Part shown: piece by piece, positions 6,322 to 58,287 of the stretch
Position numbering within the stretch: the first letter of the stretch is position 1
Layout of the letters: each line of letters opens with the position of its first letter
Source of the DNA: Parcubacteria group bacterium Greene0714_7
GTDB taxonomy: Bacteria; Patescibacteriota; Minisyncoccia; Phycocordibacterales; Phycocordibacteraceae
Length of the DNA: 64,000 bases
Assembly (NCBI GenBank): GCA_007378985.1
Contig: VMHB01000001.1
Span: 192,252 to 256,251, forward strand
Direction of reading: 5' to 3'
The notes under the pieces: generated by a model
Told to the model about the DNA's origin: nothing
The model's database searches: none
The model's input: only the letters and a program-made list of their open reading frames with translations
Position numbers and translations under genes: made by a program

Positions 6322-6357
6322 CCTCTAAACACTATCATATATGATAGTGTTTAGAGG
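6322..6357. promoter_or_regulatory. 36-bp perfect palindrome (operator-like) ending at the start codon of the TrpR-like gene
   Basis: CCTCTAAACACTATCATATATGATAGTGTTTAGAGG. A TATAAA box lies about 6 nt upstream. Confidence 0.6.
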
Positions 6358-6786: not shown

Positions 6787-6793
6787 TATAAAC

Positions 6794-6813
6794 CACTATC
6801 ATATATGATAGTG
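6794..6813. promoter_or_regulatory. 20-bp perfect palindrome with the same core as the upstream operator, between the TrpR-like gene and rarA
   Basis: CACTATCATATATGATAGTG. Confidence 0.5.
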
Positions 6814-21767: not shown

Positions 21768-21813
21768 ACCCCGTTAGAAATACCACCTGCACAGATTTCT
21801 AAAATATTTATAT

Positions 21814-23652
21814 ATGAAAAAGCGCATTGATAAAATTTCTAACGGGGTGAACATACTTGAATTAACACGGAGTGGAAGAGCAAGAGTTCTCGTCATAGGG
21901 AATCATTCAGGCATTATTCAGTCAATGCTCGATTTTGATTTTCTTTCAGGCAAGGAAATTCCTTCTGTATTGGGGATAGTTGCAGGGAATCGTAAGGCAG
22001 AAAAATATTTTTTTGGGACTAAAGAAATTTTGTTGCCATGCTATAAGAATATTCAAATTGCTTCGGAGGCCTTAGGTTCAAAGGTCGACTGGATGCTTAA
22101 TCTTCAGTCGGGACGGCGTACATTTGAATCAACGGTTTCCTTTTTTGATTTTTTCCCAAAATCGCTTGGGGCACACATATTTGCAGAAAATGTTCCAGAA
22201 AGTCACGCAACTGAGCTCATTTCTCGTTTTGGTAAGAAGTATTTTATCGTAGGGCCTTCAGGAGTTGGATTGTTGATACCAGGCGCTTTGAAGCTTGGCG
22301 CCATTGGTGGTGTTGATGCGGTTCAAATTAAATCTGGAGCACTGACAAACGCTGGAAATATTGCGGTTGGTTCAACTTCTGGAGGAATGACTAATGAGCT
22401 GATTCATGCAGTTGCGCGTGCTGGGAAAAGACTCTCGTTTGCAATAGCTATTGGCGGAGACAGGTTTCCTGTAGTTTCTTTGACGCAGATATTTGCGCTT
22501 GCTGAAGCAGATTCTCAAACAGAAGGATTTGTATATTTTGGAGAGCTTGGCGGTGTAGATGAATATGAAATTATTGAGCTCATTAAGGCAAAAAAGTTCA
22601 CCAAACCTCTTGTTGCGTATATTGCGGGAATTATAGATGAAGCATTTGATGAACATGTACAATTTGGGCATGCAAAGGCATTGGTGCAGACAATGGATGA
22701 AAGTGCTCGTGCAAAGCGTGAGGCACTTCGCGAGGCTGGTGTTATTGCTCCTGATACATTTCCTCAGTTTCTTGATGCGCTTCAAAAACTTCCCGGAGGC
22801 GCGTATACTGCTGAGGAAATGGATATAGAGCCGCTTCAAGGACGACAGAAAAGTATTCTTTCGACGAGAAAGGTTTCAGACATAGATGAAGGTCGTATTT
22901 TTGTAAAAGGAAAAAAACTTTCGAAAGGCAAAGAAAATGCATTTGTGGACGCTACGTTAGTTGCACTTCTTGGAAAGCCTGTACAGTCTCCAATAACACG
23001 AGCCTTTACCGAAGCTGTGTTTGAAATGCTTATAGACCACGGAGGAAATGTTTCAGGGGCAGTAAATACCATGATTACCGCTCGTGCTGGTAAAGATCTT
23101 GTTTCATCCCTTGCCTCAGGCCTTCTCACTGTTGGTCCCCGTTTTGGTGGAGCAATAAACGAAGCAGCTCGTTTGTGGATTTCGGGTGTTGTATCGCAAA
23201 AAACAGGTTTGGAATTTGTAGCTGAAAAAGCAAAGGCAGGTGAGTTGATTTTAGGCATTGGGCACAAGAAATACCGCGTTGGGCTCCCAGATCCTCGAGT
23301 GAAAGCTCTTGCTGAATTTGCAACGCTTCTTAAAGTACATCCACATTATGATTTCGCACGGAGCGTAGAGAAAGCAACAACTTCAAAAAACGGGAAATTG
23401 ATTTTAAATATCGACGGCGCTATTGCAGCGTTACTCTTAGACATCTTGAGTGAATGCGAAGGGATGAGTCAGCGCGAACTTCAAGAGCTTGCTGATGCTG
23501 AATTCTTTAATGCATTTTTTGTTATTCCTCGCTCTGTAGGTTTCATTGCACATTTCATGGAACAAAAGAAAAATGATGAAGGTTTGTTTCGTCTTCCTGA
23601 TGAACTACTGTTTGTGAGAGCAGAGACTCCAAAGAAAACTAAGAAGAAATAA
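21814..23652 (+). CDS. aclA: ATP-citrate lyase alpha subunit (CoA-binding SucD-like domain plus citrate-synthase-like domain)
   Basis: MLDFDFLSGKEIPSV, ARAGKDLVSSLASGLLTVGPRFGG, GIGHKKYRVGLPDPR (a citrate synthase-type motif) and PRSVGFIAHFMEQ all match the ACLY C-terminal half. Confidence 0.8.
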   Translation: MKKRIDKISNGVNILELTRSGRARVLVIGNHSGIIQSMLDFDFLSGKEIPSVLGIVAGNRKAEKYFFGTKEILLPCYKNIQIASEALGSKVDWMLNLQSGRRTFESTVSFFDFFPKSLGAHIFAENVPESHATELISRFGKKYFIVGPSGVGLLIPGALKLGAIGGVDAVQIKSGALTNAGNIAVGSTSGGMTNELIHAVARAGKRLSFAIAIGGDRFPVVSLTQIFALAEADSQTEGFVYFGELGGVDEYEIIELIKAKKFTKPLVAYIAGIIDEAFDEHVQFGHAKALVQTMDESARAKREALREAGVIAPDTFPQFLDALQKLPGGAYTAEEMDIEPLQGRQKSILSTRKVSDIDEGRIFVKGKKLSKGKENAFVDATLVALLGKPVQSPITRAFTEAVFEMLIDHGGNVSGAVNTMITARAGKDLVSSLASGLLTVGPRFGGAINEAARLWISGVVSQKTGLEFVAEKAKAGELILGIGHKKYRVGLPDPRVKALAEFATLLKVHPHYDFARSVEKATTSKNGKLILNIDGAIAALLLDILSECEGMSQRELQELADAEFFNAFFVIPRSVGFIAHFMEQKKNDEGLFRLPDELLFVRAETPKKTKKK

Positions 23653-24257: not shown

Positions 24258-24323
24258 TTTCGACTCCATGACTCACTCAGAGCAAGCACCCGTGGACTAT
24301 TTTTCTAAACACTACAAAAGAGC

Positions 24324-24365
24324 CAGTATAGTATAAGTTAACGACCGTTAAATTATACTATACTG
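24324..24365. promoter_or_regulatory. 42-bp AT-rich near-palindrome P1 (20-bp arms, AC centre)
   Basis: CAGTATAGTATAAGTTAACG-AC-CGTTAAATTATACTATACTG. Confidence 0.5.
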
Positions 24366-24409
24366 ATTGAAACTGCTTTTATTTTAGAATTAATTTTTTA
24401 CTCAATTTT

Positions 24410-24721
24410 TTATTTGGCCTTTTTTAAAAATTTGACGCTCAAAGGTGAAATGTTTGGATAGAGGCGTGCTAATTCTGTCGGGTCAGATTTATACGGTGTG
24501 AATGCTTCAATAGTTGCATCTGATGCGGTGCCTGGTCCAAGCCATACAGTATCCCCACCTTCATCAGTATGTCTTTCAATGTGAAATACTCGGTAGACAA
24601 TGCCGGGGAAAAAATGAGGAGCAAGAGAAATAAAGTCTTGCGCTGAGAGGGCTCGTAGTTTCACCCGATCTCCTTTTTGAAGAAAGAGATGTTCAGGTTT
24701 TCGGTGGTCTTTTTCTGACAT
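24410..24721 (-). CDS. Hypothetical protein (103 aa) bracketed by palindromes P1 and P2
   Basis: The ORF is intact but has no recognisable domain. Confidence 0.45.
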   Translation of the reverse strand: MSEKDHRKPEHLFLQKGDRVKLRALSAQDFISLAPHFFPGIVYRVFHIERHTDEGGDTVWLGPGTASDATIEAFTPYKSDPTELARLYPNISPLSVKFLKKAK

Positions 24722-24797
24722 AGATGCCGTTTATTATATCATTTTGATTTTTTAACTCTTCAGTAATGTAATTTTTAAGTATTATTAACCAATTGCC

Positions 24798-24837
24798 TGT
24801 ATAGTATAATTTAACGACCGTTAAATTATACTATACA
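24798..24837. promoter_or_regulatory. 40-bp near-palindrome P2, same family as P1, in the divergent spacer between the 103-aa gene and the NUDIX gene
   Basis: TGTATAGTATAATTTAACG-AC-CGTTAAATTATACTATACA. Confidence 0.5.
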
Positions 24838-24876
24838 CCTTAATACTACTTAGCTTAGGCGGTATATAATAAAAAA

Positions 24877-26580: not shown

Positions 26581-26707
26581 GCTATAGATTAGTGTATAGC
26601 GTTTAGTGGTTAGGGGAATTCAATTCAAGAAAACTAAACCCTAAACGCTAGACCCTAAACCCTATTTAAGCTAGCCCCGAGAGGTTCGAAGTGTTAAAGT
26701 ATTTGCG

Positions 26708-33548: not shown

Positions 33549-33740
33549 ATGGCTAAGCGTGCAACTGCTGTAGAGGCAAATTTGGCGGATTTTTGGAGTG
33601 TAGTTAGCCATCCTCTCAATTTCGAAAATCCAGCTACACGAGACACTGTTCGAAAAATTGCTTTCAGTGCCATGAAGAAATGTAATAGAGAAGATGCTCT
33701 AAAAATACAAGCTTTTTTGGATGAGTATAACTGTGGTTGA
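33549..33740 (+). CDS. Small hypothetical ORF translationally coupled to atpC
   Basis: Its ATG lies 2 nt after the atpC stop. 63 aa, no recognisable domain. Confidence 0.3.
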   Translation: MAKRATAVEANLADFWSVVSHPLNFENPATRDTVRKIAFSAMKKCNREDALKIQAFLDEYNCG

Positions 33741-33770
33741 CAAAATTGTATTTTGGAGTATAAATAAGAA

Positions 33771-37183: not shown

Positions 37184-37213
37184 AAGAGTTAGCTAATGGC
37201 TATACCCTAAAAC

Positions 37214-38815
37214 CTATTGGCTAATAATTACTTCTTCACCATCCTTCAGGCCTCGTGCATCTTTAACTATTCTCATGTCGGAAGTTATTCCTGAAGTTAC
37301 TGCAATTCTAGAACCTGCAAGCGTTCCGACGATCACAGGGTGAGGGACAAGGATTCCATTTTCACTAACAGTGAAAACAATTGTCCCTTCAGGGGTAATT
37401 TTGAGTGCAGATAAAGGCAGAGTGAGGAGGGTATCTTTTACGGATGTTTTAGTTGTTCGCGCAATGGAGACAGATGCACTTGATCCAGAAACTAGCGAAG
37501 TGTTTTGAGGAATAGAGATACGAACTTCAGCCTTTTTTGTTATAGGATCAAGGGCGTTTGCCAGTCTTGCAACTTTTCCTGTGACGGATTTTCCAACCAC
37601 TACAGTTGCTCCAACGGAAATATCAGCAATATCACGCTCAGAAACGAATACGACAACTTCAAGGCCTCGCGCGTTCGTTATATACACAACAGGCACTGAC
37701 GCGTTCACGAAAGACCCCACCTCAAGATCAAGGCGGTTGATAGTGCCTCCAATTGGTGCGCGGATGATAGTTTTTTCTAAGTTAGCTTTCGCCACTTGAA
37801 GATTAGCCTCTGCTCCGCGTACATCTGAATTTTGTGATGTGCCCCCAGAAAGATTTTCTGTTGATACTTGCACTGCGGCAGTTTTTGCCTTTAGATTTTC
37901 AATCGCACTGTTAACTGCGGACGCAGCACCGTTTACGTTTGAAAGTGCTAGAGATACATCGGCACGATATCCTGCAATTGCAGCATCAGTAACTGAGCCA
38001 GACGCAATTGCTTTATTGAGAGCTGAAACCGTTGCAGAGAGAAGGTCGCGAACTTTATTGATGTCACTTCTGAGAGTCTCAAGCTCAGCCAAGGCGCTTG
38101 TGGCATCAGTTGGAGTTTCTGCTTTTTCTTCTCGTGCTAAAACTGTCTGTATTGCAAGGCGTTTACTTTCAACAGTGAGAACAGCCTGAGAATTTGAAGT
38201 TGATACTATAAATTTAGGTTGTGAGCCGTTTGGATTAGAAAATACCCCATCTAATTTTTTACTCACTGCATCATCGAGTGTCGCATACGTTCCGAGGATA
38301 GTATTTTTCGCTGAATTAATTGCTGAAGTGAGACTGTCTTCTGCGGACCCAAGACCGATACCGGTTATTGTTGCACCTGTCTTTGCTTTATCGAGGGCTG
38401 CTTCCGCTTGAGCTACTCCTGCGCGTTGTGAATCATTCTTTAGGTCTGCAATGACTGCTCCAGCACCAACTGTGTCACCGAGTGATCGGTAGACGTGAGC
38501 GACGGTGCCCGATACGTCAGGAGCTACATTGGCTTCGCTTACGGAGCGAACTTCACCAATTAGAGATATAGGTTCTGGTGCGGAAAGATCACTGGCTGAA
38601 AGCAAGGTCACTTGTCGTCTTCCATCTGTAGCACCTTCAAGTTTTGATTTAAAAAAATAAGATATACCCACACTCCCTGCAATAAGGGCAACAATAATAC
38701 CAAGGGAAATGAGTTTATGTGCTTTTGCTACGATAAAAAATTCTTGTGAAGCTTTCCAAATAAATATCAATCCTCCCCGAAGAAAAGTGAGTGCACGTAT
38801 AAGATGTTCATTCAT
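37214..38815 (-). CDS. Efflux periplasmic adaptor (HlyD/AcrA-like membrane fusion protein) with a long coiled coil
   Basis: N-terminal anchor, extended alpha-hairpin and a C-terminal beta-barrel/lipoyl-like region. It sits upstream of the RND gene. Confidence 0.8.
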   Translation of the reverse strand: MNEHLIRALTFLRGGLIFIWKASQEFFIVAKAHKLISLGIIVALIAGSVGISYFFKSKLEGATDGRRQVTLLSASDLSAPEPISLIGEVRSVSEANVAPDVSGTVAHVYRSLGDTVGAGAVIADLKNDSQRAGVAQAEAALDKAKTGATITGIGLGSAEDSLTSAINSAKNTILGTYATLDDAVSKKLDGVFSNPNGSQPKFIVSTSNSQAVLTVESKRLAIQTVLAREEKAETPTDATSALAELETLRSDINKVRDLLSATVSALNKAIASGSVTDAAIAGYRADVSLALSNVNGAASAVNSAIENLKAKTAAVQVSTENLSGGTSQNSDVRGAEANLQVAKANLEKTIIRAPIGGTINRLDLEVGSFVNASVPVVYITNARGLEVVVFVSERDIADISVGATVVVGKSVTGKVARLANALDPITKKAEVRISIPQNTSLVSGSSASVSIARTTKTSVKDTLLTLPLSALKITPEGTIVFTVSENGILVPHPVIVGTLAGSRIAVTSGITSDMRIVKDARGLKDGEEVIISQ

Positions 38816-39181: not shown

Positions 39182-39790
39182 ATGTCTGCTAGAATAGGCG
39201 ACATGACTTCGAGCAAGAAAAAAATATTTATCCTCATGGGAAATCCCGACAGCGATTCTCGTACAGGACACCTTGCTGATGCATATGAACTCGGAGCTCT
39301 TGAGGCGGGGCATGAAGTGAGGCGCCAAAATGTAGGCGAAATGCATTTTGACCCAATACTCCATAAGGGATATAAGGTTATTCAGGAATTAGAGCCTGAT
39401 TTAAAAACATTTCAGGAGAATGTACGCTGGGCAGATCATTTGGTGGTGCTATATCCAAACTGGTGGTCTACGATGCCCGCACTTCTAAAAGGACTCATTG
39501 ATCGAGCGTGGCTTCCGGGGTTTGCGTTTCGTTTTCATAAAACCGATGTCTGGTGGGACGGTCTCCTCAAAGGTAAAAGTGCACGAATCATAATTCTAGC
39601 CAATACACACCCATGGTTTGCGTGGCTTATGTTTGGCGAGTTCACCAATGAACTTGCTCGCGCAACGCTGGCATTTTCAGGTATAGCCCCAATTTTTATA
39701 AATGTACTTACTCCATCTGAAAAAGTTTCTGAAACCAAATGGAAAAAATGGGTGCAGATGGTGCAAGAGATGGGTTCCCGTGCTACTTGA
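39182..39790 (+). CDS. Flavodoxin-like NAD(P)H-dependent oxidoreductase (KefF/MdaB/azoreductase-like)
   Basis: Flavodoxin_2 pattern (KIFILMGNPDSDS...HLVVLYPNWWSTMPALLKGLIDR). Confidence 0.7.
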   Translation: MSARIGDMTSSKKKIFILMGNPDSDSRTGHLADAYELGALEAGHEVRRQNVGEMHFDPILHKGYKVIQELEPDLKTFQENVRWADHLVVLYPNWWSTMPALLKGLIDRAWLPGFAFRFHKTDVWWDGLLKGKSARIIILANTHPWFAWLMFGEFTNELARATLAFSGIAPIFINVLTPSEKVSETKWKKWVQMVQEMGSRAT

Positions 39791-39815
39791 CAAAAATAGT
39801 TACATGGTATATAAT
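39787..39815 (+). promoter_or_regulatory. Sigma-70-like promoter (TTGACA-N17-TATAAT)
   Basis: An exact consensus -35 and -10 with a 17-bp spacer lie 22 nt upstream of a small ORF at 39838. Confidence 0.5.
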
Positions 39816-40011: not shown

Positions 40012-40185
40012 GAATTGCTGATTGAAGTCGAGTGTTTCATACACTAACTAGCCAATTTTTTATTTAGGAGATATTAGAAAAAAGAAAAATGGAAACAGTG
40101 GGTTGATATAGTTCAACAAATAGGAAGTAGGGCAAAATAAATTAGGACCCTCTAATAATTAATGCCCCGTGTCTCCGAAAAACAC

Positions 40186-40227
40186 CTGTATAGTATAAAA
40201 TCACGGTCGTGATTTTATACTATACAG
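40186..40227. promoter_or_regulatory. 42-bp near-palindrome P3 (same family as P1/P2, with compensatory arm changes) upstream of ychF
   Basis: CTGTATAGTATAAAATCACG-GT-CGTGATTTTATACTATACAG. Confidence 0.5.
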
Positions 40228-40287
40228 GGTTTTAAATTTTTTTTTTAGGCTAGCCACTAAAGCCTAAACCCTATACACTGCTCCTTT

Positions 40288-41399: not shown

Positions 41400-41427
41400 T
41401 TGACACTATTCAAAAATTCTATATAAT
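41400..41427 (+). promoter_or_regulatory. Sigma-70-like promoter (TTGACA-N16-TATAAT)
   Basis: Consensus boxes. A possible 46-codon ORF or sRNA follows before the membrane-protein gene. Confidence 0.45.
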
Positions 41428-45173: not shown

Positions 45174-45175
45174 AG

Positions 45176-45202
45176 CATGTGGGACCTCGGAGGTCCCACA
45201 TG
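45176..45202 (+). terminator. Strong 11-bp-stem hairpin after leuS (no clear U-tract)
   Basis: CATGTGGGACC-TCGGA-GGTCCCACATG. Confidence 0.5.
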
Positions 45203-45210
45203 GGGGTGGC

Positions 45211-45351
45211 CCCCGCACTAAAACTTGGCGTTATAGCTTGCTGTACTGATATATGAGATTATTTATACTACTGTTGCCACTATTGCACTCCGTGTAATGC
45301 GTTATACTCACGCTTCGCTATGAGGTACGACGCCAAGTTCTAGTGACGGGG
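45211..45351. repeat. About 140-nt element bounded by imperfect 21-bp inverted repeats with CCCCG...CGGGG ends
   Basis: CCCCGCACTAAAACTTGGCGT ... ACGCCAAGTTCTAGTGACGGGG. Confidence 0.4.
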
Positions 45352-45440
45352 TGGGGATAAGTATTTGACGGTTTGACGGGATTTAAAATATGTGCTATAA
45401 GAAGTGGACACAGTAATCAATAAAAATACGGCTCATATTT

Positions 45441-46469
45441 ATGATCAAACTTCCTTTCAAGCCTGTTCAAGTGAGCAAACGACTTGTTGCAGTACTACCT
45501 GAGCGTTCACGCGATGTTGTAGTGAGCCGTTATGGCTTAGGTTCAAAAGCTCGCGGAGAAACTCTTGATGCTATTGGAAAGCGATATGGCATTACACGAG
45601 AACGCGTTCGCCAAATTGAAAACCACGCAACAAAACTCATACAAGATTCTCCAGCACTTACAAAAGAAGCTTCTTCTTTTGTCTGGCTTGAGAATGCTAT
45701 TCGTGAATTAGGGGGCGTACTGTCAGAGAGTATGTTGCTTGATGAGTTTGCAAAGGACACTGAAACACGAAACCATCTTTATTTTTTACTCGTTGTTGGA
45801 CAGCCATTTATTTCTGCAAAAGAAACTCCTGACTTTAAAGCTCGCTGGTCTGTTGATCCAGAGCTCACCAAGGCAGTTGAATCTGCTTTGAAGCAAGTTC
45901 ATGGAACCGTTAAACACTCTGATGTTTTATCTGAAGATAAACTTGTTGAGCATGTCATGAGTTGCCTCACTAAGGTCAACACTAAATATCGCTCTAAAGA
46001 TACTGTCCGTAGATGGCTAGAGCTTTCAAACTGTATTATGCGAAATCCTTTAGGTGATTGGGGACGCGCATCGGCACCAGGAATTAGAGTAAAAAATATT
46101 CGCGACCATGCGTATCTTGCCTTGAAGCGTCATGGCTCACCAATGCATTTTCGTGAAGTCGCAAAATCAATCGAGAAACTTTTTGGAAAGAAAGCTCACG
46201 AAGCAACAACGCATAATGAGCTTATTAAAGATGGCCGTTTTGTGTTAGTGGGTAGAGGTATCTACGCTCTCAAGGAGTGGGGATATCGAATTGGTCCAGT
46301 GGTTGAAATAATTAAACACATTCTGAAGGAATCAGGACCTTTAACTCGTGAGGAAATCATGAAGCGTGTTTCTAAAGAGCGTTATGTGAAGCCAAACACT
46401 ATCATTGTGAACTTGCAAAATTCATCATTCACAAAAAAAGACGGGAAGTATTCATTGAAGGGAACATAA
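45441..46469 (+). CDS. Protein with an N-terminal sigma-70 region-4-like HTH and a large unknown C-terminal domain
   Basis: Region 4 signature (VSRYGLGSKARGETLDAIGKRYGITRERVRQIE). Confidence 0.55.
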   Translation: MIKLPFKPVQVSKRLVAVLPERSRDVVVSRYGLGSKARGETLDAIGKRYGITRERVRQIENHATKLIQDSPALTKEASSFVWLENAIRELGGVLSESMLLDEFAKDTETRNHLYFLLVVGQPFISAKETPDFKARWSVDPELTKAVESALKQVHGTVKHSDVLSEDKLVEHVMSCLTKVNTKYRSKDTVRRWLELSNCIMRNPLGDWGRASAPGIRVKNIRDHAYLALKRHGSPMHFREVAKSIEKLFGKKAHEATTHNELIKDGRFVLVGRGIYALKEWGYRIGPVVEIIKHILKESGPLTREEIMKRVSKERYVKPNTIIVNLQNSSFTKKDGKYSLKGT

Positions 46470-47979: not shown

Positions 47980-48948
47980 GTGCTAGCTTTTAAAATGGAA
48001 AAAAATACTAAAAAAATAATCTATAGCATTTCGGGAGTTCTGATTGTTTTTCTTTTTGCTACCTACGGTGCATTTTTTGCACCTCCACTTAGTTTTCAGA
48101 AAGATTCCATTGTCACAATTTCCTCAGGGACGGGCGTACAAGAGGCTGGGGAATTGTTGAAAGCAAAGAGTGTTATTCAATCTCCATTCGTGTTTTCAAT
48201 ACTTGTTCGATTTATCTACCCCTCAGGTATTATCGCTAACCACTATTCGTTTTCTAAGCCCCAGTCAGTATTGACTGTTGCGTACCGTCTTGCAAAAGGG
48301 AAAACAGATTTGGTGCCCCTTAAAGTAACTATCCCAGAAGGCTCTAGTTCTTTCGAGATTTCAAACATCCTTGAGGGCACACTTAAGGATTTTGATTCGG
48401 TAACTTTCAAGGCACTCGCAAAATCACAAGAGGGATACTTGTTTCCTGACACCTACTTTTTCTTACCAGGAACCACACCCGACGTAGTGATTGATACGAT
48501 GCGTAAAAACTTTGATGAAAAAATAAAACCACTTGAGAGCGATATTGTTATATTTGGGAAACCAATGAGTGAGATACTCACAATGGCTTCTATTCTTGAA
48601 AGGGAAGCACGTCAGAGTGAAACTAGGAGAATGGTCGCGGGAATATTGTGGAAGCGAATATCTATTGGCATGCCACTTCAGGTTGACGCAGTGTTTGGCT
48701 ATATTTTTCAAAAGAGTGGCTATGCTCCAACGCTCACTGATTTACAAACTGATTCTCTCTACAATACATATTTACATAGAGGACTTCCACCAATGCCCAT
48801 TGGTAACCCTGGTCTTGAGGCAATACAGGACGCCGTCACGCCTACAAAAAATCCTTACCTCTATTACTTAACTGATACAGATGGGAATATATACTATGCA
48901 AAGACATTTGCGGAACATCGGCTCAACAAACTAAAAGCCAGAAACTAA
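47980..48948 (+). CDS. MltG/YceG-like endolytic transglycosylase, second paralog
   Basis: YceG motifs (DSLYNTYLHRGLPPMPIGNPG...YLYYL) and an N-terminal transmembrane helix. Confidence 0.7.
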   Translation: MLAFKMEKNTKKIIYSISGVLIVFLFATYGAFFAPPLSFQKDSIVTISSGTGVQEAGELLKAKSVIQSPFVFSILVRFIYPSGIIANHYSFSKPQSVLTVAYRLAKGKTDLVPLKVTIPEGSSSFEISNILEGTLKDFDSVTFKALAKSQEGYLFPDTYFFLPGTTPDVVIDTMRKNFDEKIKPLESDIVIFGKPMSEILTMASILEREARQSETRRMVAGILWKRISIGMPLQVDAVFGYIFQKSGYAPTLTDLQTDSLYNTYLHRGLPPMPIGNPGLEAIQDAVTPTKNPYLYYLTDTDGNIYYAKTFAEHRLNKLKARN

Positions 48949-48960
48949 CAAGAAATTTCC

Positions 48961-49000
48961 CCATTTCTTATATATCGATTAATCGATATATAAGAAATGG
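48961..49000. promoter_or_regulatory. 40-bp perfect palindrome immediately upstream of a consensus promoter
   Basis: CCATTTCTTATATATCGATTAATCGATATATAAGAAATGG. Confidence 0.6.
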
Positions 49001-49007
49001 ACATGGG

Positions 49008-49036
49008 TTGACAAAATATGATTAAGCTAGTATATT
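49008..49036 (+). promoter_or_regulatory. Sigma-70-like promoter (TTGACA-N17-TATATT) for the 49043-52307 gene string
   Basis: Consensus boxes lie 7 nt upstream of the ATG at 49043. Confidence 0.5.
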
Positions 49037-49042
49037 ACACAG

Positions 49043-49315
49043 ATGGCAGGAGAAGATTATATAGGAGATCGGGTTCGTAGGGGAATCCCTGTTTTAAAGG
49101 CAACTGAGGCTTTGGCAGTAGTTGCTGGTGTTTCTGTACCTGTAGCAGTGGGGCACTTACTTATAGCAGGATTACTTACTCCACCTCTCGGAGCTATTGC
49201 TGCCGGTACTTTTGCGACTTCAGCACTTGTTTTTTGGTTAGCACGAGGATACAGAAAAGGTAGAGAGAGCGTTCTTGATCATTGGAACAAATGGCCAGTC
49301 AGACCCGGTAAATGA
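49043..49315 (+). CDS. Small membrane protein (90 aa, two transmembrane helices)
   Basis: A hydrophobic ORF placed first in the operon. Confidence 0.4.
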   Translation: MAGEDYIGDRVRRGIPVLKATEALAVVAGVSVPVAVGHLLIAGLLTPPLGAIAAGTFATSALVFWLARGYRKGRESVLDHWNKWPVRPGK

Positions 49316-49344
49316 TACTAAAATCGACTTTAAAGTAATATTTT

Positions 49345-49533
49345 ATGTCTTCAGGAAAAAGAGAAACACTTCGAATACAAGGTGAGCGCAATTTTGCGAG
49401 ACTTGTAGATAACATAAGAAGCGCAACTAGTAGAGCTCTGGAGCAGATGACCGAAGACTGGAGTTGCACTGTCTGTGGGCTTGCAGGAATACCTGAAGGT
49501 AGTAGATGTCCAACTTGTAATCCATATAAATAA
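49345..49533 (+). CDS. Small zinc-ribbon protein (62 aa)
   Basis: CTVCG...CPTC Cys4 ribbon at the C-terminus. Confidence 0.4.
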   Translation: MSSGKRETLRIQGERNFARLVDNIRSATSRALEQMTEDWSCTVCGLAGIPEGSRCPTCNPYK

Positions 49534-49581
49534 TTTTTCTTAAAACTGGAAGACTGGGGCTTGAGGCTATAGACTGTCTTC

Positions 49582-50610
49582 ATGGATACTGTTTTTGTAG
49601 GACTCTCTGGAGGTGTTGATTCTGCAGTTTCCGCGTATCTTTTGAAGAAGCAAGGATACAAAGTAGTGGGCGCTTTTATAAAGGGCTGGGAACCTGATTT
49701 TTTGCCATGCACCGGTGTTCGTGATCGTTTGGAAGCAATGAGGGTGGCAGCTCACCTCGGCATTCCATTCGTTACTTACGACTTGTCAGAAGAATATAAG
49801 CGGGGAGTCGTTGATTATTTTGTTAGTGAATACAAGCTCGGTAGGACACCTAATCCTGATGTCATGTGTAATCGAGTTATAAAATTTGGTGCATTTTGGG
49901 AAAAAGCAAAAGCAGATGGAGCCAATCTAATTGCAACCGGCCATTACGTCCAAAAGAAGATGGCAGATGGCAGTTTTCAGATGGCAGTCTCGGAAGATAT
50001 GGAGAAAGATCAAACATATTTTTTGTGGACATTGACACAAGAGGATCTTAGTCATTCTTTCTTTCCAGTAGGTGGACTTGAAAAAAGTGAAGTCAGGCGA
50101 CTTGCACTTGAAGCAAATCTACCAAATGCCTCACGCGCCGACTCGCAAGGGCTTTGTTTTTTAGGGCATGTTGATATGCACGCATTTTTAAAGCGATATC
50201 TACCAACTGAAATAGGTGTTGTGCGAGATGAAAATGGAAAGTCTATTGGTAGTCATGATGGAATTTGGTTTTATACTCTTGGTCAACGGCACGGCTTCGG
50301 TTCTCTTGGAGGTGAACGTTTGTATGTGGTAGCAAAAGATCGTACGAAAAACGAATTAATTGTTTCTACAAGTCCTCTTGGAGAAAATGCGGAGAAATCA
50401 TTTGCATTAACTAATGAGAGTTCGGTAGATGGCTCTCCACTAGTAGGGAAATATTTGGGTCGCTATCGGTATCGTCAGACATTATTGCCTGTGGAAATTC
50501 ATGACGGACAGGCTTCTTTTGACACTCCGCAACGGATAGCCTCTGGGCAGTCGCTCGTGGTGTATGACGAGAGAGGGGAAATAATGCATGGTGGTGCTAT
50601 TATTGAGTAA
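49582..50610 (+). CDS. mnmA: tRNA-specific 2-thiouridylase
   Basis: PP-loop SGGVDS, and catalytic cysteines in PNPDVMCN and DSQGLCF. Confidence 0.9.
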   Translation: MDTVFVGLSGGVDSAVSAYLLKKQGYKVVGAFIKGWEPDFLPCTGVRDRLEAMRVAAHLGIPFVTYDLSEEYKRGVVDYFVSEYKLGRTPNPDVMCNRVIKFGAFWEKAKADGANLIATGHYVQKKMADGSFQMAVSEDMEKDQTYFLWTLTQEDLSHSFFPVGGLEKSEVRRLALEANLPNASRADSQGLCFLGHVDMHAFLKRYLPTEIGVVRDENGKSIGSHDGIWFYTLGQRHGFGSLGGERLYVVAKDRTKNELIVSTSPLGENAEKSFALTNESSVDGSPLVGKYLGRYRYRQTLLPVEIHDGQASFDTPQRIASGQSLVVYDERGEIMHGGAIIE

Positions 50611-50612
50611 CT

Positions 50613-51446
50613 ATGTCGTTGCCTATTATTATAAAAGGAGATGGAAACAAAGAGTCTTTTGCAATAGAAAAACTTACCGAATCTCTGCGTCGCTCAGGAA
50701 CAGATGAGCATTTAGCAGAAGCTGTAGCAAAGCGCGTTGGTGCGACCGTTAAAGACGGTATGACTACTACCGCTATTTACCAAGAAGCTTTCAAAGTACT
50801 CCGCAAGGAGGAGCGTGTTTCAGCAGCCCGATATTCAATGCGCCGAGCTATTCTTGATTTAGGGCCTACTGGTTTTCCATTTGAGAAATTTGTTGCCGCG
50901 CTCATGCATGCAAAAGGATACGAAACTTCGTATGGCATCACGGTGCAGGGAAGATGTATTGATCATGAAGTTGATGTAGTAATGCGAAAAGATGGAAAGG
51001 CAATTGGCGCTGAATTAAAATTTCATAATACCCCCGGATTTAAAACAGATCTAAAGACCGCACTCTATGTGCGTGCAAGATATTGGGATATTCAATGGGG
51101 GGCTGAAGACAGGGAAGAGAAGGCTGGTATTGACGAAGGATGGCTTGTGACGAATACAAAGTTTACTTCGAAAGCTATCCAATATTCAAATTGTTCGGGC
51201 ATTAAACTTCTTGGGTGGAGTTATCCTGATGGCGCCAGTCTTTCTGACTTTATTCGAGAGACGGGTGTCTATCCCATAACGATCTTAACGACACTCTCAC
51301 AAGCAGAAAAAAATCGACTTCTTCAGTCTGGCGTAACAATGTGTCACATGGTAATGAGTGATCCCGATTCACTAAAGCGAATTGGTATTCCAGCAAAAAA
51401 ACAAAGTGAGGTAGTTGCAGAGAGTAAGGCAATTTGTCAGCTGTAA
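50613..51446 (+). CDS. ATP-cone domain protein fused to an Mrr-like PD-(D/E)xK restriction endonuclease domain
   Basis: N-terminal ATP-cone (IIKGDGNKESFAIEKLTESLRRSG). C-terminal Mrr_cat-like D...EVD...ELK core. Confidence 0.65.
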   Translation: MSLPIIIKGDGNKESFAIEKLTESLRRSGTDEHLAEAVAKRVGATVKDGMTTTAIYQEAFKVLRKEERVSAARYSMRRAILDLGPTGFPFEKFVAALMHAKGYETSYGITVQGRCIDHEVDVVMRKDGKAIGAELKFHNTPGFKTDLKTALYVRARYWDIQWGAEDREEKAGIDEGWLVTNTKFTSKAIQYSNCSGIKLLGWSYPDGASLSDFIRETGVYPITILTTLSQAEKNRLLQSGVTMCHMVMSDPDSLKRIGIPAKKQSEVVAESKAICQL

Positions 51447-51470
51447 CATTGTATTTTTTCACAAAGCATT

Positions 51471-52307
51471 ATGTCGCAATACTATAAGCCACACCGTAAA
51501 GTTGATTGGAATTATGGAGGGCCTAGGTGGCGTCTGTCGCGTTCAAAAATAGATCTCTTCATTCAGTGTCCTCGTTGTTTTTATATTGATAATAAGCTTG
51601 GTACTGCACGACCTCCTGGATTTCCATTCAATTTGAACTCAGCCGTCGACAAACTTTTAAAAAAAGAGTTTGATATTCACCGAAATTCAAAAAGTACTCA
51701 TCCATTAATGAGTAAGTATGGTGTTGATGCTATCCCCTTTGAGCATAAAAAGATGGATACATGGAGAGAAAATTTTAAAGGGATTGATTGCTTCCATGCA
51801 CCTACTGGATTCACTGTTTCGGGCGCCATAGATGATGTATGGGTTAGTCCAAAAGGTGAGTTACACATTGTTGATTACAAGGCTACGAGTAAAGATGAGG
51901 AAGTAACCCTTGATGCCGAGTGGCAGGATGGATACAAGCGTCAAATGGAAGTGTACCAATGGCTATTTCGTCAAAACGAGTTCACTGTCTCTGACATGGG
52001 GTATTTTGTGTATGCGAACGGAAGAACAGATACCGAGGCATTCGATGGCAAGCTTGAGTTCGATGTAAAGGTAATCCCGTACGTCGGCAAAGCGGATTGG
52101 ATTGACGGGACTCTTTTGGAAATTAAAGCGTGCCTAGATGCCGATGTAATTCCAAAAACAGGCGAAGCGTGCGATTACTGTACGTACCGCAAAGCAGTTG
52201 GGGAAGTTCTTCAGCCATTTATAAAAAAAGATGTAGGCAGTTCAAAAATAAGTAAGGCAAAATCAAAAGATAGTGAAGATTCACATGAGCAATCCCTTTT
52301 TAGATAA
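51471..52307 (+). CDS. Cas4-like/RecB-family PD-(D/E)xK nuclease with N- and C-terminal Cys pairs (probable Fe-S cluster)
   Basis: Motifs IVDYKAT and QMEVYQWLF (QhxxY), plus the Cys pairs CPRC (N-terminal) and CDYC (C-terminal). Confidence 0.65.
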   Translation: MSQYYKPHRKVDWNYGGPRWRLSRSKIDLFIQCPRCFYIDNKLGTARPPGFPFNLNSAVDKLLKKEFDIHRNSKSTHPLMSKYGVDAIPFEHKKMDTWRENFKGIDCFHAPTGFTVSGAIDDVWVSPKGELHIVDYKATSKDEEVTLDAEWQDGYKRQMEVYQWLFRQNEFTVSDMGYFVYANGRTDTEAFDGKLEFDVKVIPYVGKADWIDGTLLEIKACLDADVIPKTGEACDYCTYRKAVGEVLQPFIKKDVGSSKISKAKSKDSEDSHEQSLFR

Positions 52308-52351: not shown

Positions 52352-52395
52352 GACTGAGAAACTTATTTCCATATATGGAAATAAGTTTCTCAGTC
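52352..52395. promoter_or_regulatory. 44-bp perfect palindrome over the 3' end of the second TrpR-like gene. It is followed on the plus strand by a T-run, so it probably also terminates the Cas4-like gene.
   Basis: GACTGAGAAACTTATTTCCATATATGGAAATAAGTTTCTCAGTC followed by TAATTTTTTCTTTTTT. Confidence 0.6.
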
Positions 52396-52782
52396 TAATT
52401 TTTTCTTTTTTGGTTCTGGAAATAGAAGAAAATGCAACGGGTATTTGCGTTTAAGTGCTCTGAAAGAAAATGGACCATAGTTCGCCTCAAAAAGGTTTTC
52501 CCTCTTTTTGAATTCTTTATCCATGCTTTTGATTGCTTCCTCGAATCCAGGAAATTGATCTTGAAGCCATCGTTCTACTCGGTATATGGTTGCCAATCCA
52601 ACGCGTAGTTTTGTGGCGATGTCATTAGCTCGTTCGCCTTGGATAAGGAGTCGAGCTATCCAAATTCGCCTTCCAAGCATGATTCTCTCGCTTTCAGTGA
52701 GAAGATCGCGCAGGAAGAGTTTCATTGTGCTTCGTCCGCGAACTGATCCCGCTGCAGTGTAGAGAATATCTAGTGTTTTCAT
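52390..52782 (-). CDS. TrpR-like DNA-binding protein (YerC/YecD family), paralog 2
   Basis: MKTLDILYTAAGSVRGRSTMKLFLRDLLTESERIMLGRR matches paralog 1. A strong SD (AAGGAGGAG) precedes the internal ATG chosen as start. Confidence 0.8.
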   Translation of the reverse strand: MKTLDILYTAAGSVRGRSTMKLFLRDLLTESERIMLGRRIWIARLLIQGERANDIATKLRVGLATIYRVERWLQDQFPGFEEAIKSMDKEFKKRENLFEANYGPFSFRALKRKYPLHFLLFPEPKKKKLD

Positions 52783-52875
52783 TTTCTCCTCCTTTCCAAG
52801 GTCGCTAGATTTTCTTTTCATACTGAACATATTTTCATATATGGAAATATCTGCACGAAAACATGGTGTATAACT

Positions 52876-52917
52876 TCACTCACATGTATTTCCATATATG
52901 GAAATACATGTGAGTGA
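52876..52917. promoter_or_regulatory. 42-bp perfect palindrome in the divergent spacer between TrpR-like paralog 2 and the MGMT-like gene. An imperfect copy lies at 52849-52868.
   Basis: TCACTCACATGTATTTCCATATATGGAAATACATGTGAGTGA. The core TTTCCATATATGGAAA is shared with the 52352 palindrome. Confidence 0.6.
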
Positions 52918-52969
52918 ACAGATTTGGGCGTGCAAGATGAGCTAGGCAAAAGGGTGGTATATTTGATAA

Positions 52970-53257
52970 ATGGTGCAGGTATTTTCAAAGAAGTTCAAAG
53001 ATGATTTCAGGGCTCGAGTGGTGGCGGTGGTAAAGAAAATACCGCGCGGAAAAACTATGAGTTATGGGCAGGTTGCTCTGGCAGCTGGGCGTCCAAATGC
53101 AGGAAGGGCAGTTGGAACTATTATGGCGGGAAATCAGGATAAGGGCGTGCCGTGTCACCGAGTGATTCGCTCTGATGGGAAAATTGGGGGCTACAACGGT
53201 CTTCGAGATGGTTTGAGTAAGGAAGAACTTTTAAGAAAGGAAGGGGCGATTAAATAG
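52970..53257 (+). CDS. MGMT-family (O6-alkylguanine alkyltransferase) DNA-binding domain protein, short (95 aa)
   Basis: PCHRV active-site motif and a helix-turn-wing region (MSYGQVALAAGRPNAGRAVG). Confidence 0.7.
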   Translation: MVQVFSKKFKDDFRARVVAVVKKIPRGKTMSYGQVALAAGRPNAGRAVGTIMAGNQDKGVPCHRVIRSDGKIGGYNGLRDGLSKEELLRKEGAIK

Positions 53258-53325: not shown

Positions 53326-54009
53326 TTGAATGCAAGGCATATGGAAATACGCATTGAGCAATCTTGGAAAGAAAAATTGAAAGAGGAATTTGAAAAGCCA
53401 TATTTCAAAACACTGATTTCATTTGTTAAAGATGCCTATACAAAAGGTTCGGTATACCCACATCCAAAAAATATCTTCCGTGCGTTTGATTTATGTCCAT
53501 TTGGTGCGGTTAAGGTAGTTATCTTGGGTCAGGATCCGTATCACGGAGAAGGCCAGGCAAATGGCCTTTCGTTTGCAGTAGAGGAAGGAGTACGACCACC
53601 GCCATCGCTTCAAAATATTTTCAAAGAAATTCAATCAGATATTGGTAAGCCTCTTGTTCATACGAACGGTGACTTATCAAGGTGGGCAACGCAGGGAGTA
53701 CTACTTTTAAACGCAACGCTCACTGTGCAAGCGAATACGGCAGGCTCGCATCAGGGTAAAGGTTGGGAAGAGTTTACTGATGCGGCAATTAAATTACTTT
53801 CAGAAGAACGTGAACACCTAGTGTTTATTCTTTGGGGTAATTATGCCAAAGCAAAAGGTGCGCATATTGATCGCACTAAACATCTTGTTATTGAATCGCC
53901 ACACCCATCACCTTTCTCGGCCTTTAGTGGATTTTTTGGAAGTAAACCTTTCAGTAAAACAAACACGTATCTTATGGTTAAGGGACACGCTCCTATTGAT
54001 TGGCTCTGA
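53326..54009 (+). CDS. ung: Uracil-DNA glycosylase (family 1)
   Basis: Catalytic motifs GQDPYH and HPSPLS-like (SPHPSPFSA). Confidence 0.9.
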   Translation: MNARHMEIRIEQSWKEKLKEEFEKPYFKTLISFVKDAYTKGSVYPHPKNIFRAFDLCPFGAVKVVILGQDPYHGEGQANGLSFAVEEGVRPPPSLQNIFKEIQSDIGKPLVHTNGDLSRWATQGVLLLNATLTVQANTAGSHQGKGWEEFTDAAIKLLSEEREHLVFILWGNYAKAKGAHIDRTKHLVIESPHPSPFSAFSGFFGSKPFSKTNTYLMVKGHAPIDWL

Positions 54010-58258: not shown

Positions 58259-58287
58259 TTGACTTACTGTATCAACTAATGTATAAT
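58259..58287 (+). promoter_or_regulatory. Sigma-70-like promoter (TTGACT-N17-TATAAT). The expected start site coincides with an ATG, giving a leaderless mRNA.
   Basis: The -10 box ends 6 nt before the ATG at 58294. Confidence 0.5.

Follow-up and report, generated by a model that had tools for sequence, protein, structure and literature searches.

In ribonucleotide reductases and in NrdR, the ATP-cone serves as the allosteric sensor of nucleotides. For AF1548 of Archaeoglobus fulgidus (PDB 1Y88), a catalytic D...ExK motif has been predicted (PMC1821046). The groundwater genome of Parcubacteria bacterium Greene0714_7 encodes, within the 64-kb stretch of DNA analysed here (the window), a protein in which an ATP-cone precedes an AF1548-like nuclease. 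Residues 93-274 of this protein align with AF1548 (E=9e-39 by sequence), the fold match reaches E=5e-17 with a TM of 0.74 on the target, and a PD-(D/E)xK core followed by a C-terminal helical domain is common to both proteins. The D...ExK residues predicted to be catalytic in AF1548 are invariant in the window protein's family. The N-terminal ATP-cone (residues 5-75), in contrast, lies outside the match to the 199-residue AF1548 chain, and this match names the family, not the activity.

An earlier note on this DNA had described five tightly spaced plus-strand genes that end at a 44-bp palindrome/terminator, and such a run is present (gaps of 29, 48, 2 and 24 nt; Table 1). Its gene identifications were also right: mnmA scores 348 bits with its NCBIfam equivalog model, above the cut-off of 284, and the nucleases match ATP-cone/Mrr_cat and PDDEXK_1 of Pfam. 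On balance, the region appears to be a composite of an old housekeeping string and a young strain-variable cassette, and not one special operon.

Table 1. Features of the mltG-UDG region (positions in the window)
Feature	Position	Strand	Evidence or remark
mltG (YceG-like)	47980..48948	+	Pfam YceG E=1.6e-64; NCBIfam MltG; syntenic in related loci
40-bp perfect palindrome	48961-49000	.	20+20, no spacer, TTAA centre
Near-consensus sigma-70-type promoter	49008..49036	+	TTGACA 49008-49013, 17-nt spacer, TATATT 49031-49036
TM90, 90-aa protein with two predicted hydrophobic (transmembrane-like) stretches	49043..49315	+	Lineage-restricted
Zinc-ribbon protein, 62 aa, CxxC...CxxC	49345..49533	+	Varies or is replaced between close strains
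TAGACT, -10-like hexamer, candidate leaderless mnmA promoter	49570..49575	+	6 nt before mnmA ATG
mnmA, tRNA 2-thiouridine(34) synthase	49582..50610	+	NCBIfam NF001138; Pfam tRNA_Me_trans
ATP-cone + PD-(D/E)xK nuclease + AF1548-like C-terminal domain	50613..51446	+	Three Pfam domains above cut-off
RecB/Cas4/AddB-type PD-(D/E)xK nuclease	51471..52307	+	Pfam PDDEXK_1; alignment invariants
44-bp perfect palindrome, terminator-like in both directions	52352-52395	.	Flanking A run and T run
TrpR/YerC-like regulator gene	52390..52830	-	Pfam Trp_repressor E=8e-13; convergent with nuclease genes
MGMT DNA-binding/active-site domain protein	52970-53257	+	Pfam; syntenic continuation of string
Uracil-DNA glycosylase (UDG)	53326-54009	+	Pfam; syntenic continuation of string

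Comparison by tblastn of loci from 49 related genomes reveals a long conserved string, LeuRS-sigma-DUF8128-mltG-mnmA-ATP-cone/AF1548 nuclease-RecB-like nuclease-MGMT-UDG-M13-AlaRS, the order of which persists over the whole length even in loci whose ATP-cone nuclease is only about 42% identical. The mnmA gene lies directly upstream of the ATP-cone nuclease gene in 37 of the 43 informative loci, with a gap of at most 30 nt in 23, and of 39 loci, 33 have the second nuclease gene no more than 3 kb downstream, 23 of them at 150 nt or less, so that the co-localisation of these genes, which the earlier note had left to be checked elsewhere, is common. The MGMT gene overlaps the RecB-like nuclease gene or starts within 30 nt of it in 18/31 loci. 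Judged from this distribution, the string of about 14 kb that holds mnmA and the two nucleases is a housekeeping one, conserved across the clade, and mltG, mnmA, both nucleases, MGMT and UDG would make up its ancient part in Patescibacteria of the Paceibacteria/Kaiserbacteria type. As the genome is generally syntenic and streamlined, the conserved order proves neither functional coupling nor the absence of coupling. The ATP-cone nuclease is probably translated by coupling to mnmA, since its start is located only 2 nt past the mnmA stop.

The ATP-cone nuclease passes the Pfam models ATP-cone, Mrr_cat and AF1548-like_C. Residues E119, D121, E134 and K136 are conserved in 100% and the ATP-cone residues K8, G11 and K20 in 97-98% of 151 sequences. 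There are 3317 homologues (56-88% identity among the 120 best matches listed). The family counts 549 clusters at 50% identity (E<=1e-30), of which the best 150 are nearly all about 280 aa long, and is found mainly in Patescibacteria among the matches that carried a name. This is an uncharacterised family, possibly regulated by (d)ATP; its domains and motifs suggest that the enzyme is probably switched by the binding of ATP/dATP to the ATP-cone. The RecB-like nuclease has at least 8000 homologues (65-99% identity among the 120 best matches listed) and carries four invariant cysteines, arranged CxxC...CxxC, and a conserved, disordered C-terminal tail ending in [ST]-L-F, by which it may be tethered to the replication clamp.

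The distance between mltG, the last gene ahead of a variable slot, and mnmA ranges from 12 to 3216 nt between loci, and this slot is occupied here by the 40-bp palindrome, the promoter and the two small genes. In a 96% relative (L035) the mltG stop runs straight into the mnmA leader and the whole cassette is absent; a 97% relative (L004) is without the 40-nt palindrome segment, part of the promoter and part of the TM90 gene; in L006 the palindrome is absent and the order of the small genes is reversed, with the zinc-ribbon gene ahead of TM90. The zinc-ribbon gene is also frameshifted in L003 and is a different one in L004. TM90 matched no Pfam family at cut-off, and only three clusters of homologues were found, while the differences from the L006 orthologue at codon positions 1/2/3 (11/8/35) indicate purifying selection. 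The palindrome is carried only by strains of 99-100% identity. Palindrome, promoter and small genes thus represent, to judge by these comparisons, a strain-variable cassette inside the old conserved string, presumably a young one, with the palindrome as a 40-nt indel at its left edge.

The cassette promoter, an 11/12 match to sigma-70, is the best in the 46-55 kb interval; five matches of at least 11/12 occur in the window against 1.5 expected. The description of it as a textbook promoter close to the first ATG holds, since the -10 box ends 6 nt ahead of the ATG at 49043. With this spacing, transcription is predicted to begin on the A of the ATG or on a neighbouring nucleotide, giving a leaderless mRNA, and no SD motif is present ahead of this ATG. 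The promoter would therefore yield a leaderless message for the lineage-specific membrane protein and the small zinc-ribbon protein. L003, L006 and L026 likewise have -10-N6-ATG ahead of the cassette. Genome-wide habit is visible among the 67 ORFs: 27 of them have a TAnnnT whose end lies 5-8 nt ahead of the start codon, compared with about 2 per position elsewhere, and four have an SD-like motif; a -10 box at this distance is the genome's normal leaderless layout. The mnmA gene would be transcribed from a -10 box of its own, also of the leaderless type: the hexamer TAGACT, retained by L003, L004 and L035. The corresponding sequence of L006 and L026 is TAAGCT-N6-ATG. Transcription of the cassette may read through into mnmA, which would not depend on it; as no terminator-like site was found between 49043 and 52352, a large share of the mRNA for mnmA and the nucleases may come, in this strain, from the cassette promoter.

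The earlier note had gone further and taken the palindrome as the operator of one promoter driving all five genes, with the nucleases, an unusual combination, possibly forming a nucleotide-sensing DNA-damage or defence module. The common strand, the short gaps, the failure to find an internal terminator-like site, the conserved ATP-cone residues and the co-localisation of the nuclease pair with mnmA in most relatives are in its favour, as is the fact that defence systems do contain Cas4-like and Mrr-like domains. The PADLOC search, however, returned only weak hits to such domains, the Cas4 model scores far under its cut-off, and the nucleases are highly conserved single genes of a clade-wide housekeeping string and not of a variable island. 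Close relatives keep the three large genes without the palindrome, the promoter and both small genes, and mnmA is preceded by its own -10-like box. The pair can also be separated: the two genes lie 4.4 kb apart in L056, and in a Nomurabacteria-type genome the RecB-like nuclease is located elsewhere, without the ATP-cone nuclease. Base composition is uniform (GC is flat at 41-44% across the window), and no CRISPR array was found in the 64 kb, in agreement with what had been noted. Such an operon, or a DNA-damage or anti-phage module, is very improbable, and no feature singles the genes out as a defence system or as a single operon under special regulation. Both nucleases are core proteins, highly conserved and with intact catalytic residues. 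Their domains and motifs suggest, as the most likely role, DNA repair or nucleotide metabolism, and the MGMT and UDG genes that come next would fit repair. It is unlikely that they are nucleotide-salvage enzymes, degrading imported or damaged nucleic acid at low (d)ATP in a nucleotide-scavenging organism. The sensor role of the ATP-cone in ribonucleotide reductase and NrdR, its conserved key residues in the window nuclease and the predominance of Patescibacteria among the named matches agree with salvage, but the neighbouring MGMT and UDG genes and the clamp-binding-like tail point to repair at the replication fork, and AF1548 relatives exist in archaea too.

The palindrome next to the promoter is indeed perfect, consisting of CCATTTCTTATATATCGATT followed directly by AATCGATATATAAGAAATGG, and ends 7 nt before the -35 box. 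It occupies about -43 to -82, overlaps neither the -35 nor the -10 box, and is present as a single copy in the 64 kb, where eight perfect palindromes with arms of at least 12 occur against 0-1 in shuffled copies. Its exact core was found only in the same strain and a 99% relative, and relative to L004 it is a clean 40-nt indel. A 22-nt core recurs exactly in three unrelated metagenome contigs, two of which share a 29-nt version (chance expectation for this AT-rich word, only roughly 0.03-0.3). In L026 the same slot holds a different 40-bp TTAA-centred perfect palindrome. Two TrpR-like genes of the window are flanked by other no-spacer palindromes, the cores of which co-vary with the orthologue in six other genomes; these other long palindromes of the window are, on this evidence, putative co-varying operators. 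The 44-bp one contains the TTTCCATATATGGAAA box of the adjacent TrpR-like gene as well.

The most likely role of the 40-bp palindrome, although a tentative one, is that of a candidate binding site for a dimeric DNA-binding protein, favoured by the symmetry, which is perfect through the centre, and by the behaviour of the other no-spacer palindromes. The 22-nt core shared with unrelated contigs and the absence of a T tract after the palindrome on the plus strand also speak for an operator, while the single copy and the odd placement, off the -35 and -10 boxes and next to a promoter for which no activator should be necessary, speak against it. The possible alternatives, about equally likely and each less so than protein binding, are an RNA hairpin and a neutral sequence. 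As a hairpin, the palindrome would stand at the end of the mltG transcript and terminate, insulate or stabilise it before the cassette promoter, a reading that is rather doubtful. The palindrome begins 12 nt past the mltG stop codon and folds, as RNA, into a stem of 18 bp closed by a 4-nt loop (the surrounding 106 nt fold at -28 kcal/mol, z = -6.1); the clade has other hairpins right after stop codons, for example that of LeuRS (45176-45202), conserved in L026, which carries hairpins in the mltG-mnmA slot too. Yet the clear terminators of the window (52352-52395 and 40185-40228) possess the U tract that is missing here, the self-complementarity of the loop is more than an RNA role would call for, the mltG-mnmA interval is free of hairpins in relatives that have no cassette, and in L006 the promoter comes directly after the stop codon. 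That the palindrome is functionless, a recent inverted duplication, a template-switch quasi-palindrome correction or a small insertion tolerated in a variable slot, is somewhat doubtful as well. Template switching yields perfect symmetry, centre included, as seen here. The restriction to 99-100% strains and the clean indel fit such an origin, and the flanks of the TrpR-box palindromes, perfectly symmetric yet different between copies, suggest a palindrome-extending process. The recurrence of the 22-nt core, in contrast, points to a recognised motif, and the other TTAA-centred palindrome in the L026 slot is likewise at odds with neutrality.

Among known regulators, TrpR/YerC-family repressors with palindromic operators offer a parallel: both TrpR-like genes of the window are flanked by perfect palindromes with cores co-varying with the orthologues. 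The core of the 40-bp palindrome, A-TCGA-TTAA-TCGA-T, is presumably laid out like that of the E. coli trp operator, A-CTAG-TTAA-CTAG-T, a similarity that serves as a lead only. This palindrome differs from the TrpR-box palindromes in being without the CATATATG centre, in its single copy and in not overlapping a promoter, and L003 has the palindrome but no TrpR-like gene between the RecB-like nuclease and MGMT genes, where this gene is also missing in the other closest relatives (L004 and L035). The promoter itself, with its -10 box 6 nt before the ATG and no SD motif, is like those of leaderless mRNAs, a layout so ordinary in this genome that only the consensus -35 box sets it apart.

The RecB-like nuclease matches PDDEXK_1 and has the D, DxK and QxxxY motifs as well as four invariant cysteines, and its nearest folds are AdnA, Cas4, RecE, AddB and EXO5, with a TM of only 0.34-0.43; the conserved disordered tail distinguishes it from all of them. 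The protein departs from Cas4 in several respects: the NCBIfam Cas4 model gives 24 bits against a cut-off of 65, the cysteines follow CxxC...CxxC and not C...CxxCx5C, and there are no cas genes or CRISPR array nearby. The ATP-cone nuclease is related to Mrr-type (type IV) restriction endonucleases through Mrr_cat (31 bits, cut-off 21), but the ATP-cone is the sole Pfam domain detected N-terminal to its nuclease core, and the protein is highly conserved in a housekeeping string, not patchy, with a marginal PADLOC domain hit. With the ribonucleotide reductase activity site and NrdR it shares a Pfam ATP-cone above cut-off, an N-terminal K-x-D-G...E-F...K-L signature conserved across the nuclease family and weak fold matches to reductase ATP-cones, whereas its putative nucleotide-binding domain is fused to a nuclease and not to a reductase or a zinc-ribbon repressor.

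The protein encoded directly after mnmA carries three domains that all score above their Pfam cut-offs: ATP-cone (28.1 bits against 25.8), Mrr_cat (31 against 21) and AF1548-like_C (28 against 23.9). Its match to AF1548 (PDB 1Y88) takes in the C-terminal domain as well as the nuclease core (residues 93-274; phmmer E=9e-39, Foldseek E=5e-17), which places it in the AF1548 family. The catalytic residues E119, D121, E134 and K136 are 100% conserved in an alignment of 151 sequences, and the ATP-cone residues are conserved at 91-98% (K8 and G11 98%, F16 91%, K20 97%), indicating that the PD-(D/E)xK nuclease is conserved and probably active and that its nucleotide-sensing domain is intact. ATP or dATP probably gates the enzyme through this predicted ATP-cone sensor. 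A metal cluster of four cysteines was considered for this protein and rejected: C115 and C194 are 97% conserved, but C244 only 72% and C275 51%. The family is large, with 3317 homologues at E<=1e-10 (the best 120 of the 3317 being 56-88% identical) and, in a filter-free profile search, 549 clusters (50% identity) at E<=1e-30; the best 150 of these clusters are nearly all about 280 aa long with the three domains present. AF1548 was predicted to be restriction-endonuclease-like in 2007 (PMC1821046), and a literature search for the ATP-cone plus Mrr/AF1548 architecture found nothing beyond that prediction.

The neighbouring nuclease has RecB-type motifs that are invariant in its alignment (D121/D122, D135-x-K137 and Q158xxxY162). 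Its nearest folds are those of AdnA, Cas4, RecE, AddB and EXO5 (TM 0.34-0.43), and Foldseek gives a probability of 1.0 for Cas4, AddB and AdnA. At least 8000 homologues exist, and the best 120 are 65-99% identical. The C-terminus (residues ~256-278) is a disordered Lys-rich linker with a conserved [ST]-L-F end, which we take to resemble a beta-clamp-binding motif.

Features of the region (window positions)
Feature	Position	Strand	Description
Palindrome	48961-49000		perfect, 20+20, zero spacer
-35 box, TTGACA	49008-49013		7 nt past the palindrome
-10 box, TATATT	49031-49036		17-nt spacer from the -35 box
TM90 gene	49043-49315	+	90 aa, two predicted hydrophobic (transmembrane-like) stretches; no Pfam family
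Zinc-ribbon protein gene	49345-49533	+	62 aa, CxxC...CxxC
TAGACT	49570-49575	+	-10-like box, N6 before mnmA ATG
mnmA	49582-50610	+	tRNA 2-thiouridine(34) synthase; NF001138, TIGR00420 above cut-off
ATP-cone nuclease gene	50613-51446	+	Pfam ATP-cone, Mrr_cat, AF1548-like_C above cut-off
RecB-like nuclease gene	51471-52307	+	Pfam PDDEXK_1; RecB motifs D, DxK, QxxxY
Palindrome	52352-52395		perfect, 44 bp, with T run

A scan of a genome collection yielded 49 related loci, nearly all labelled Patescibacteria. By tblastn with 14 window proteins, most of them share the order LeuRS, a sigma-r4/HARE-HTH protein, DUF8128, mltG, mnmA, ATP-cone nuclease, PD-(D/E)xK nuclease, MGMT domain, UDG, M13 peptidase and AlaRS, an order still seen when the identity of the ATP-cone nuclease has fallen to about 42%. 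In 37 of the 43 informative loci mnmA immediately precedes the ATP-cone nuclease gene (gap <=30 nt in 23), the RecB-like nuclease gene follows the latter at no more than 150 nt in 23 of 39 loci and at no more than 3 kb in 33 of them, and the MGMT gene starts no more than 30 nt from the RecB-like nuclease gene, or overlaps it, in 18 of 31. The co-localisation of mnmA with the two nucleases is therefore real elsewhere, and linkage between the two nucleases is not obligate: a Nomurabacteria-type genome carries the RecB-like nuclease (72% identical) among different neighbours, the nearest 8 kb being free of an ATP-cone nuclease, and a further genome has 4.4 kb between them. The co-localised genes form part of an extended syntenic run of housekeeping genes. 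The product of mnmA itself exceeds the NCBIfam equivalog cut-offs (NF001138, 348 bits against 284; TIGR00420, 331 against 237) and those of Pfam tRNA_Me_trans and tRNA_Me_trans_M, with a weak match to tRNA_Me_trans_C. The conserved 342-aa protein at 45441-46469 (sigma-70 region 4 plus HARE-HTH; 49-99% identity in related loci) is always found between LeuRS and DUF8128 there.

The earlier note had read these genes as a five-gene operon behind a palindrome and promoter, and as a possible DNA-damage or defence module. The conserved neighbourhood and the repair-like flavour of that interpretation stand, but a single palindrome-controlled operon and a defence role are not supported. Defence is disfavoured by the strong conservation of the genes, their place in a syntenic housekeeping string, the MGMT and UDG neighbours, a flat GC content (41-44% across the window) and the results of PADLOC, which gave only weak matches to Cas4, ZorD-Mrr and QueC domains. 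On this comparative evidence we regard both nucleases as probably core enzymes of DNA repair or nucleotide metabolism; a role in nucleotide salvage is the minority alternative.

The palindrome, promoter, run of five ORFs and terminal 44-bp palindrome/terminator described in the earlier note are all present in the sequence. The promoter matches the consensus at 11 of 12 positions, is the best match within 46-55 kb and is among five matches of at least 11/12 in the window, against 1.5 expected. Its -10 box ends 6 nt upstream of the ATG at 49043. Such a short distance is normal here, since in a crude set of 67 non-overlapping window ORFs a TAnnnT ending 5-8 nt before the start codon was found for 27, against about 2 per position elsewhere upstream. 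An SD-like motif precedes only 4 of the 67, and the gene starts of the window look predominantly leaderless by these counts. Four further near-consensus sigma-70 promoters occur at 33737-33764, 58259-58287, 39787-39815 and 41400-41427. The first two precede predicted leaderless small ORFs (from 33771 and 58294; one of 54 aa and Cys-rich, the other of 56 aa) in the arrangement -10-N6-ATG, so that the cassette promoter appears as one of a class of strong leaderless promoters with a small-protein gene behind. Two of the four are perfect (12/12) with no ATG 3-13 nt past the -10 box, and may drive non-coding RNAs or long leaders. The word CCCTAAA(C/A)CCTA(T/G) also recurs upstream of several gene starts beside -10-like boxes (2867-2891, 4400-4430, 26639-26669, 37193-37235 and 40250-40274) and may be a lineage-specific promoter element.

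The five ORFs are separated by gaps of 29, 48, 2 and 24 nt, and the 44-bp palindrome with its T run stands at their end. No credible terminator was found between 49043 and 52352, so read-through from the cassette promoter into mnmA and the nuclease genes is possible. One strand, short gaps and the absence of an internal terminator are what a single operon from 49008 would show, but the promoter is not conserved together with the gene set: the cassette (palindrome, promoter and the two small genes between mltG and mnmA) is absent or rearranged in the relatives L035, L004 and L006, as it is in the majority of the remaining related loci. A single promoter for five genes is also disfavoured by the conserved -10-N6-ATG directly before mnmA, which is kept as TAGACT-N6-ATG in L003, L004 and L035 and replaced by TAAGCT-N6-ATG in L006 and L026. 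In a genome with 5'-terminal AUG starts and without SD sequences, a downstream gene would require either its own transcription start or translational coupling. The gene mnmA would then have its own start, and the ATP-cone nuclease gene, with an ATG only 2 nt past the mnmA stop, would be translationally coupled.

The slot between mltG and mnmA varies from 12 to 3216 nt over the 49 loci. L035, whose ATP-cone nuclease is 96% identical, is missing the entire cassette of ~590 bp, and its mltG stop runs straight into AACTGGAAGACTG..., which is also the leader of mnmA in the window. L004 (97%) is without a 40-nt segment containing nearly all of the palindrome, has a second deletion that takes the promoter spacer and the first ~27 codons of the TM90 gene, and carries a different Zn-ribbon gene. 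L003 (99%) has the palindrome with its outermost pair broken and a frameshifted Zn-ribbon gene. In L006 (74%) the gene order is reversed, Zn-ribbon gene then membrane-protein gene, and a TTGACA/TATTGT promoter without palindrome follows immediately past the mltG stop. In L026 (88%) the slot is occupied by the gene of a membrane protein of 47% identity, by further small ORFs and by another 40-bp perfect palindrome, which differs from that of the window and has no spacer and a TTAA centre. TM90 has only three homologue clusters in a large protein collection, and differences from its L006 orthologue are distributed 11/8/35 over codon positions 1/2/3, which indicates purifying selection. From these comparisons, palindrome, promoter and two small genes are a young, variable cassette. 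A mobile or phage origin was considered for it and rejected, as blastn against a phage collection gave no match and the palindrome core occurred in no viral contig.

The palindrome (arms CCATTTCTTATATATCGATT and AATCGATATATAAGAAATGG) is one of 8 perfect palindromes with arms of at least 12 nt in the window, where shuffled copies have 0-1. We tentatively consider it a candidate DNA-level site for protein binding, at somewhat short of even chances. The symmetry is perfect through the centre, of which an RNA hairpin has no need; the plus strand has no T tract after it; the remaining no-spacer palindromes of the window are linked to regulators; and the same slot in L026 holds an unrelated palindrome of like design. 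Its 22-nt core ATATATCGATTAATCGATATAT also occurs exactly in three unrelated metagenome contigs, although this recurrence is only moderately above chance, the word being AT-rich. The copies (L057 1509-1530, L058 1349-1370 and L059 757-778) are intergenic in higher-GC contigs, two of which come from a single sample and have a 29-nt form in common (TGTAAATATATCGATTAATCGATATATTT). Against protein binding, the site lies at about -43 to -82, next to a promoter expected to need no activator, it is a single copy in the 64-kb window (the search covered the window and 8-kb flanks of the relatives), and conservation stops at the 99% strain, the exact core being confined to that relative and this strain among the related loci compared.

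That the palindrome arose neutrally, through template switching or an insertion, is a rather doubtful alternative; it has to be set beside that short-range conservation on the one hand and the like design of the L026 palindrome on the other. An RNA hairpin insulating the mltG transcript is, in our estimate, an unlikely one. RNA around the site is predicted to fold at -28 kcal/mol (z = -6.1), and Rfam gave for both palindromes of the region only spurious miRNA-hairpin matches far under gathering scores. An intrinsic terminator was rejected, as only 5 of the 19 pairs in the stem are GC and the plus strand runs on as ACATGGGTTGAC with no T run, the T-rich tail being on the minus strand only. A replication origin or terminus was also rejected, the GC skew being positive and monotonic over the whole window. 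The TrpR-like protein encoded at 52390-52830 is not supported as a binder of the palindrome, since its own boxes (TTTCCATATATGGAAA) differ from it and L003 has the palindrome without a TrpR-like gene at that site.

The boxes of this TrpR/YerC-like gene (minus strand) occur three times, one past its stop (52352-52395), the others at the start or farther upstream (52829-52850 and 52875-52918). Orthologues in six genomes (L009, L010, L017, L021, L026 and L045) have their own perfect palindromes of the form xxCATATATGxx with centre CATATATG (CTTATAAG in L026), at the start codon in five and just past the stop in five, with differing flanks. The flanks outside the shared core are perfectly palindromic too, yet unlike between copies. 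These boxes look like a co-evolving autoregulatory operator, for which they are candidates by position and symmetry. A second TrpR-like gene (6358-6786) has the core CACTATCATATATGATAGTG in a perfect 44-bp palindrome over its start (6318-6361), with further copies just past its stop (6791-6813) and within an ATP-citrate-lyase-like ORF (21010-21032). A third palindrome family (CTGTATAGTATAA..ACG; arms 19-26 nt, 2-nt centre; 24322-24378, 24795-24851 and 40184-40240) brackets a 103-aa ORF of no family (24410-24721, minus strand), its third copy standing ahead of ychF; the arms hold the -10-like words TATAGT/TATAAT, and this ORF could encode a further regulator that has sites of its own. Perfect palindromes of 28-44 bp that have AT-rich centres and no spacer recur in several relatives, beyond this strain (L026 11386-11413 and 11860-11893, a pair separated by ~450 bp in the interval from UDG to the M13 peptidase gene; L040 3389-3432; L005 4157-4184).

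LeuRS is separated from the sigma-r4/HARE-HTH gene by a 268-nt spacer (45174-45440) that begins with a GC-rich hairpin (45176-45202), whose stem is conserved in L026 (2061-2097) with a different loop. Two distant stretches of the spacer are complementary to each other (45226-45235 and 45330-45339), and the spacer could act as a structured RNA or leader; Rfam, run on 44-54 kb, gave no match for it. At 20622-23652, two adjoining ORFs carry ATP-citrate-lyase/citryl-CoA-type domains (Citrate_bind and ATP-grasp, then CoA-ligase and Citrate_synt). The host group is thought to be very reduced in central metabolism, and such genes are unexpected there.

As a candidate regulatory or defence system the region is of little importance: its genes are ordinary residents of a housekeeping string, and the palindrome with its promoter is a strain-level decoration. 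Its modest value lies in the ATP-cone nuclease family and in genome organisation, for which the window shows leaderless starts, small-gene cassettes in variable slots amid conserved genes, and regulator genes flanked by their own co-evolving palindromes as candidate operators. Across Patescibacteria, both the ATP-cone/AF1548 nuclease and the RecB-like nuclease beside it are widespread, well conserved to a high degree and uncharacterised; an ATP/dATP-gated nuclease, if true, would be a new use of the ATP-cone. Patescibacteria have minimal repair and nucleotide-synthesis capacity. A joint reading, which we offer as improbable speculation, is that the ATP/dATP pool would control the ATP-cone/AF1548 protein allosterically, making it the first nuclease of this sort, and that, with the translationally coupled mnmA and a clamp-tethered RecB-like nuclease, it would form a Patescibacteria-wide module matching DNA processing, be it repair or salvage of scavenged DNA, to the supply of nucleotides. 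As a separate part of this speculation, perfect palindromes of the clade that have no spacer, including 48961-49000, would be operator cores under continued extension to perfect 40-44-bp dyads by an active process, either template-switch homogenisation or cruciform selection.

With regard to known systems, the RecB-like nuclease was previously called Cas4-like with no CRISPR context. No CRISPR array occurs in the 64-kb window, where its neighbours are housekeeping genes, and its RecB-type motifs and Cas4-like fold agree with the name, but the curated Cas4 model TIGR00372 gives 24.2 bits, below its cut-off of 65, PADLOC Cas4 matches reach only E=1e-3 to 8e-8, and the invariant cysteines (C33, C36, C234 and C237) form the pattern CxxC...CxxC, whereas that of Cas4 is C...CxxCx5C. 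The description of the other enzyme as ATP-cone/Mrr-like holds for its ATP-cone and for the catalytic Mrr_cat domain that it shares with Mrr type IV restriction enzymes. It differs from these in having the ATP-cone at the N-terminus in place of an N-terminal DNA-recognition domain, and in that its gene resides in a housekeeping string conserved over 49 loci and does not show a patchy, defence-type distribution. In both sequence and fold the ATP-cone nuclease matches AF1548 (1Y88), a structural-genomics protein.
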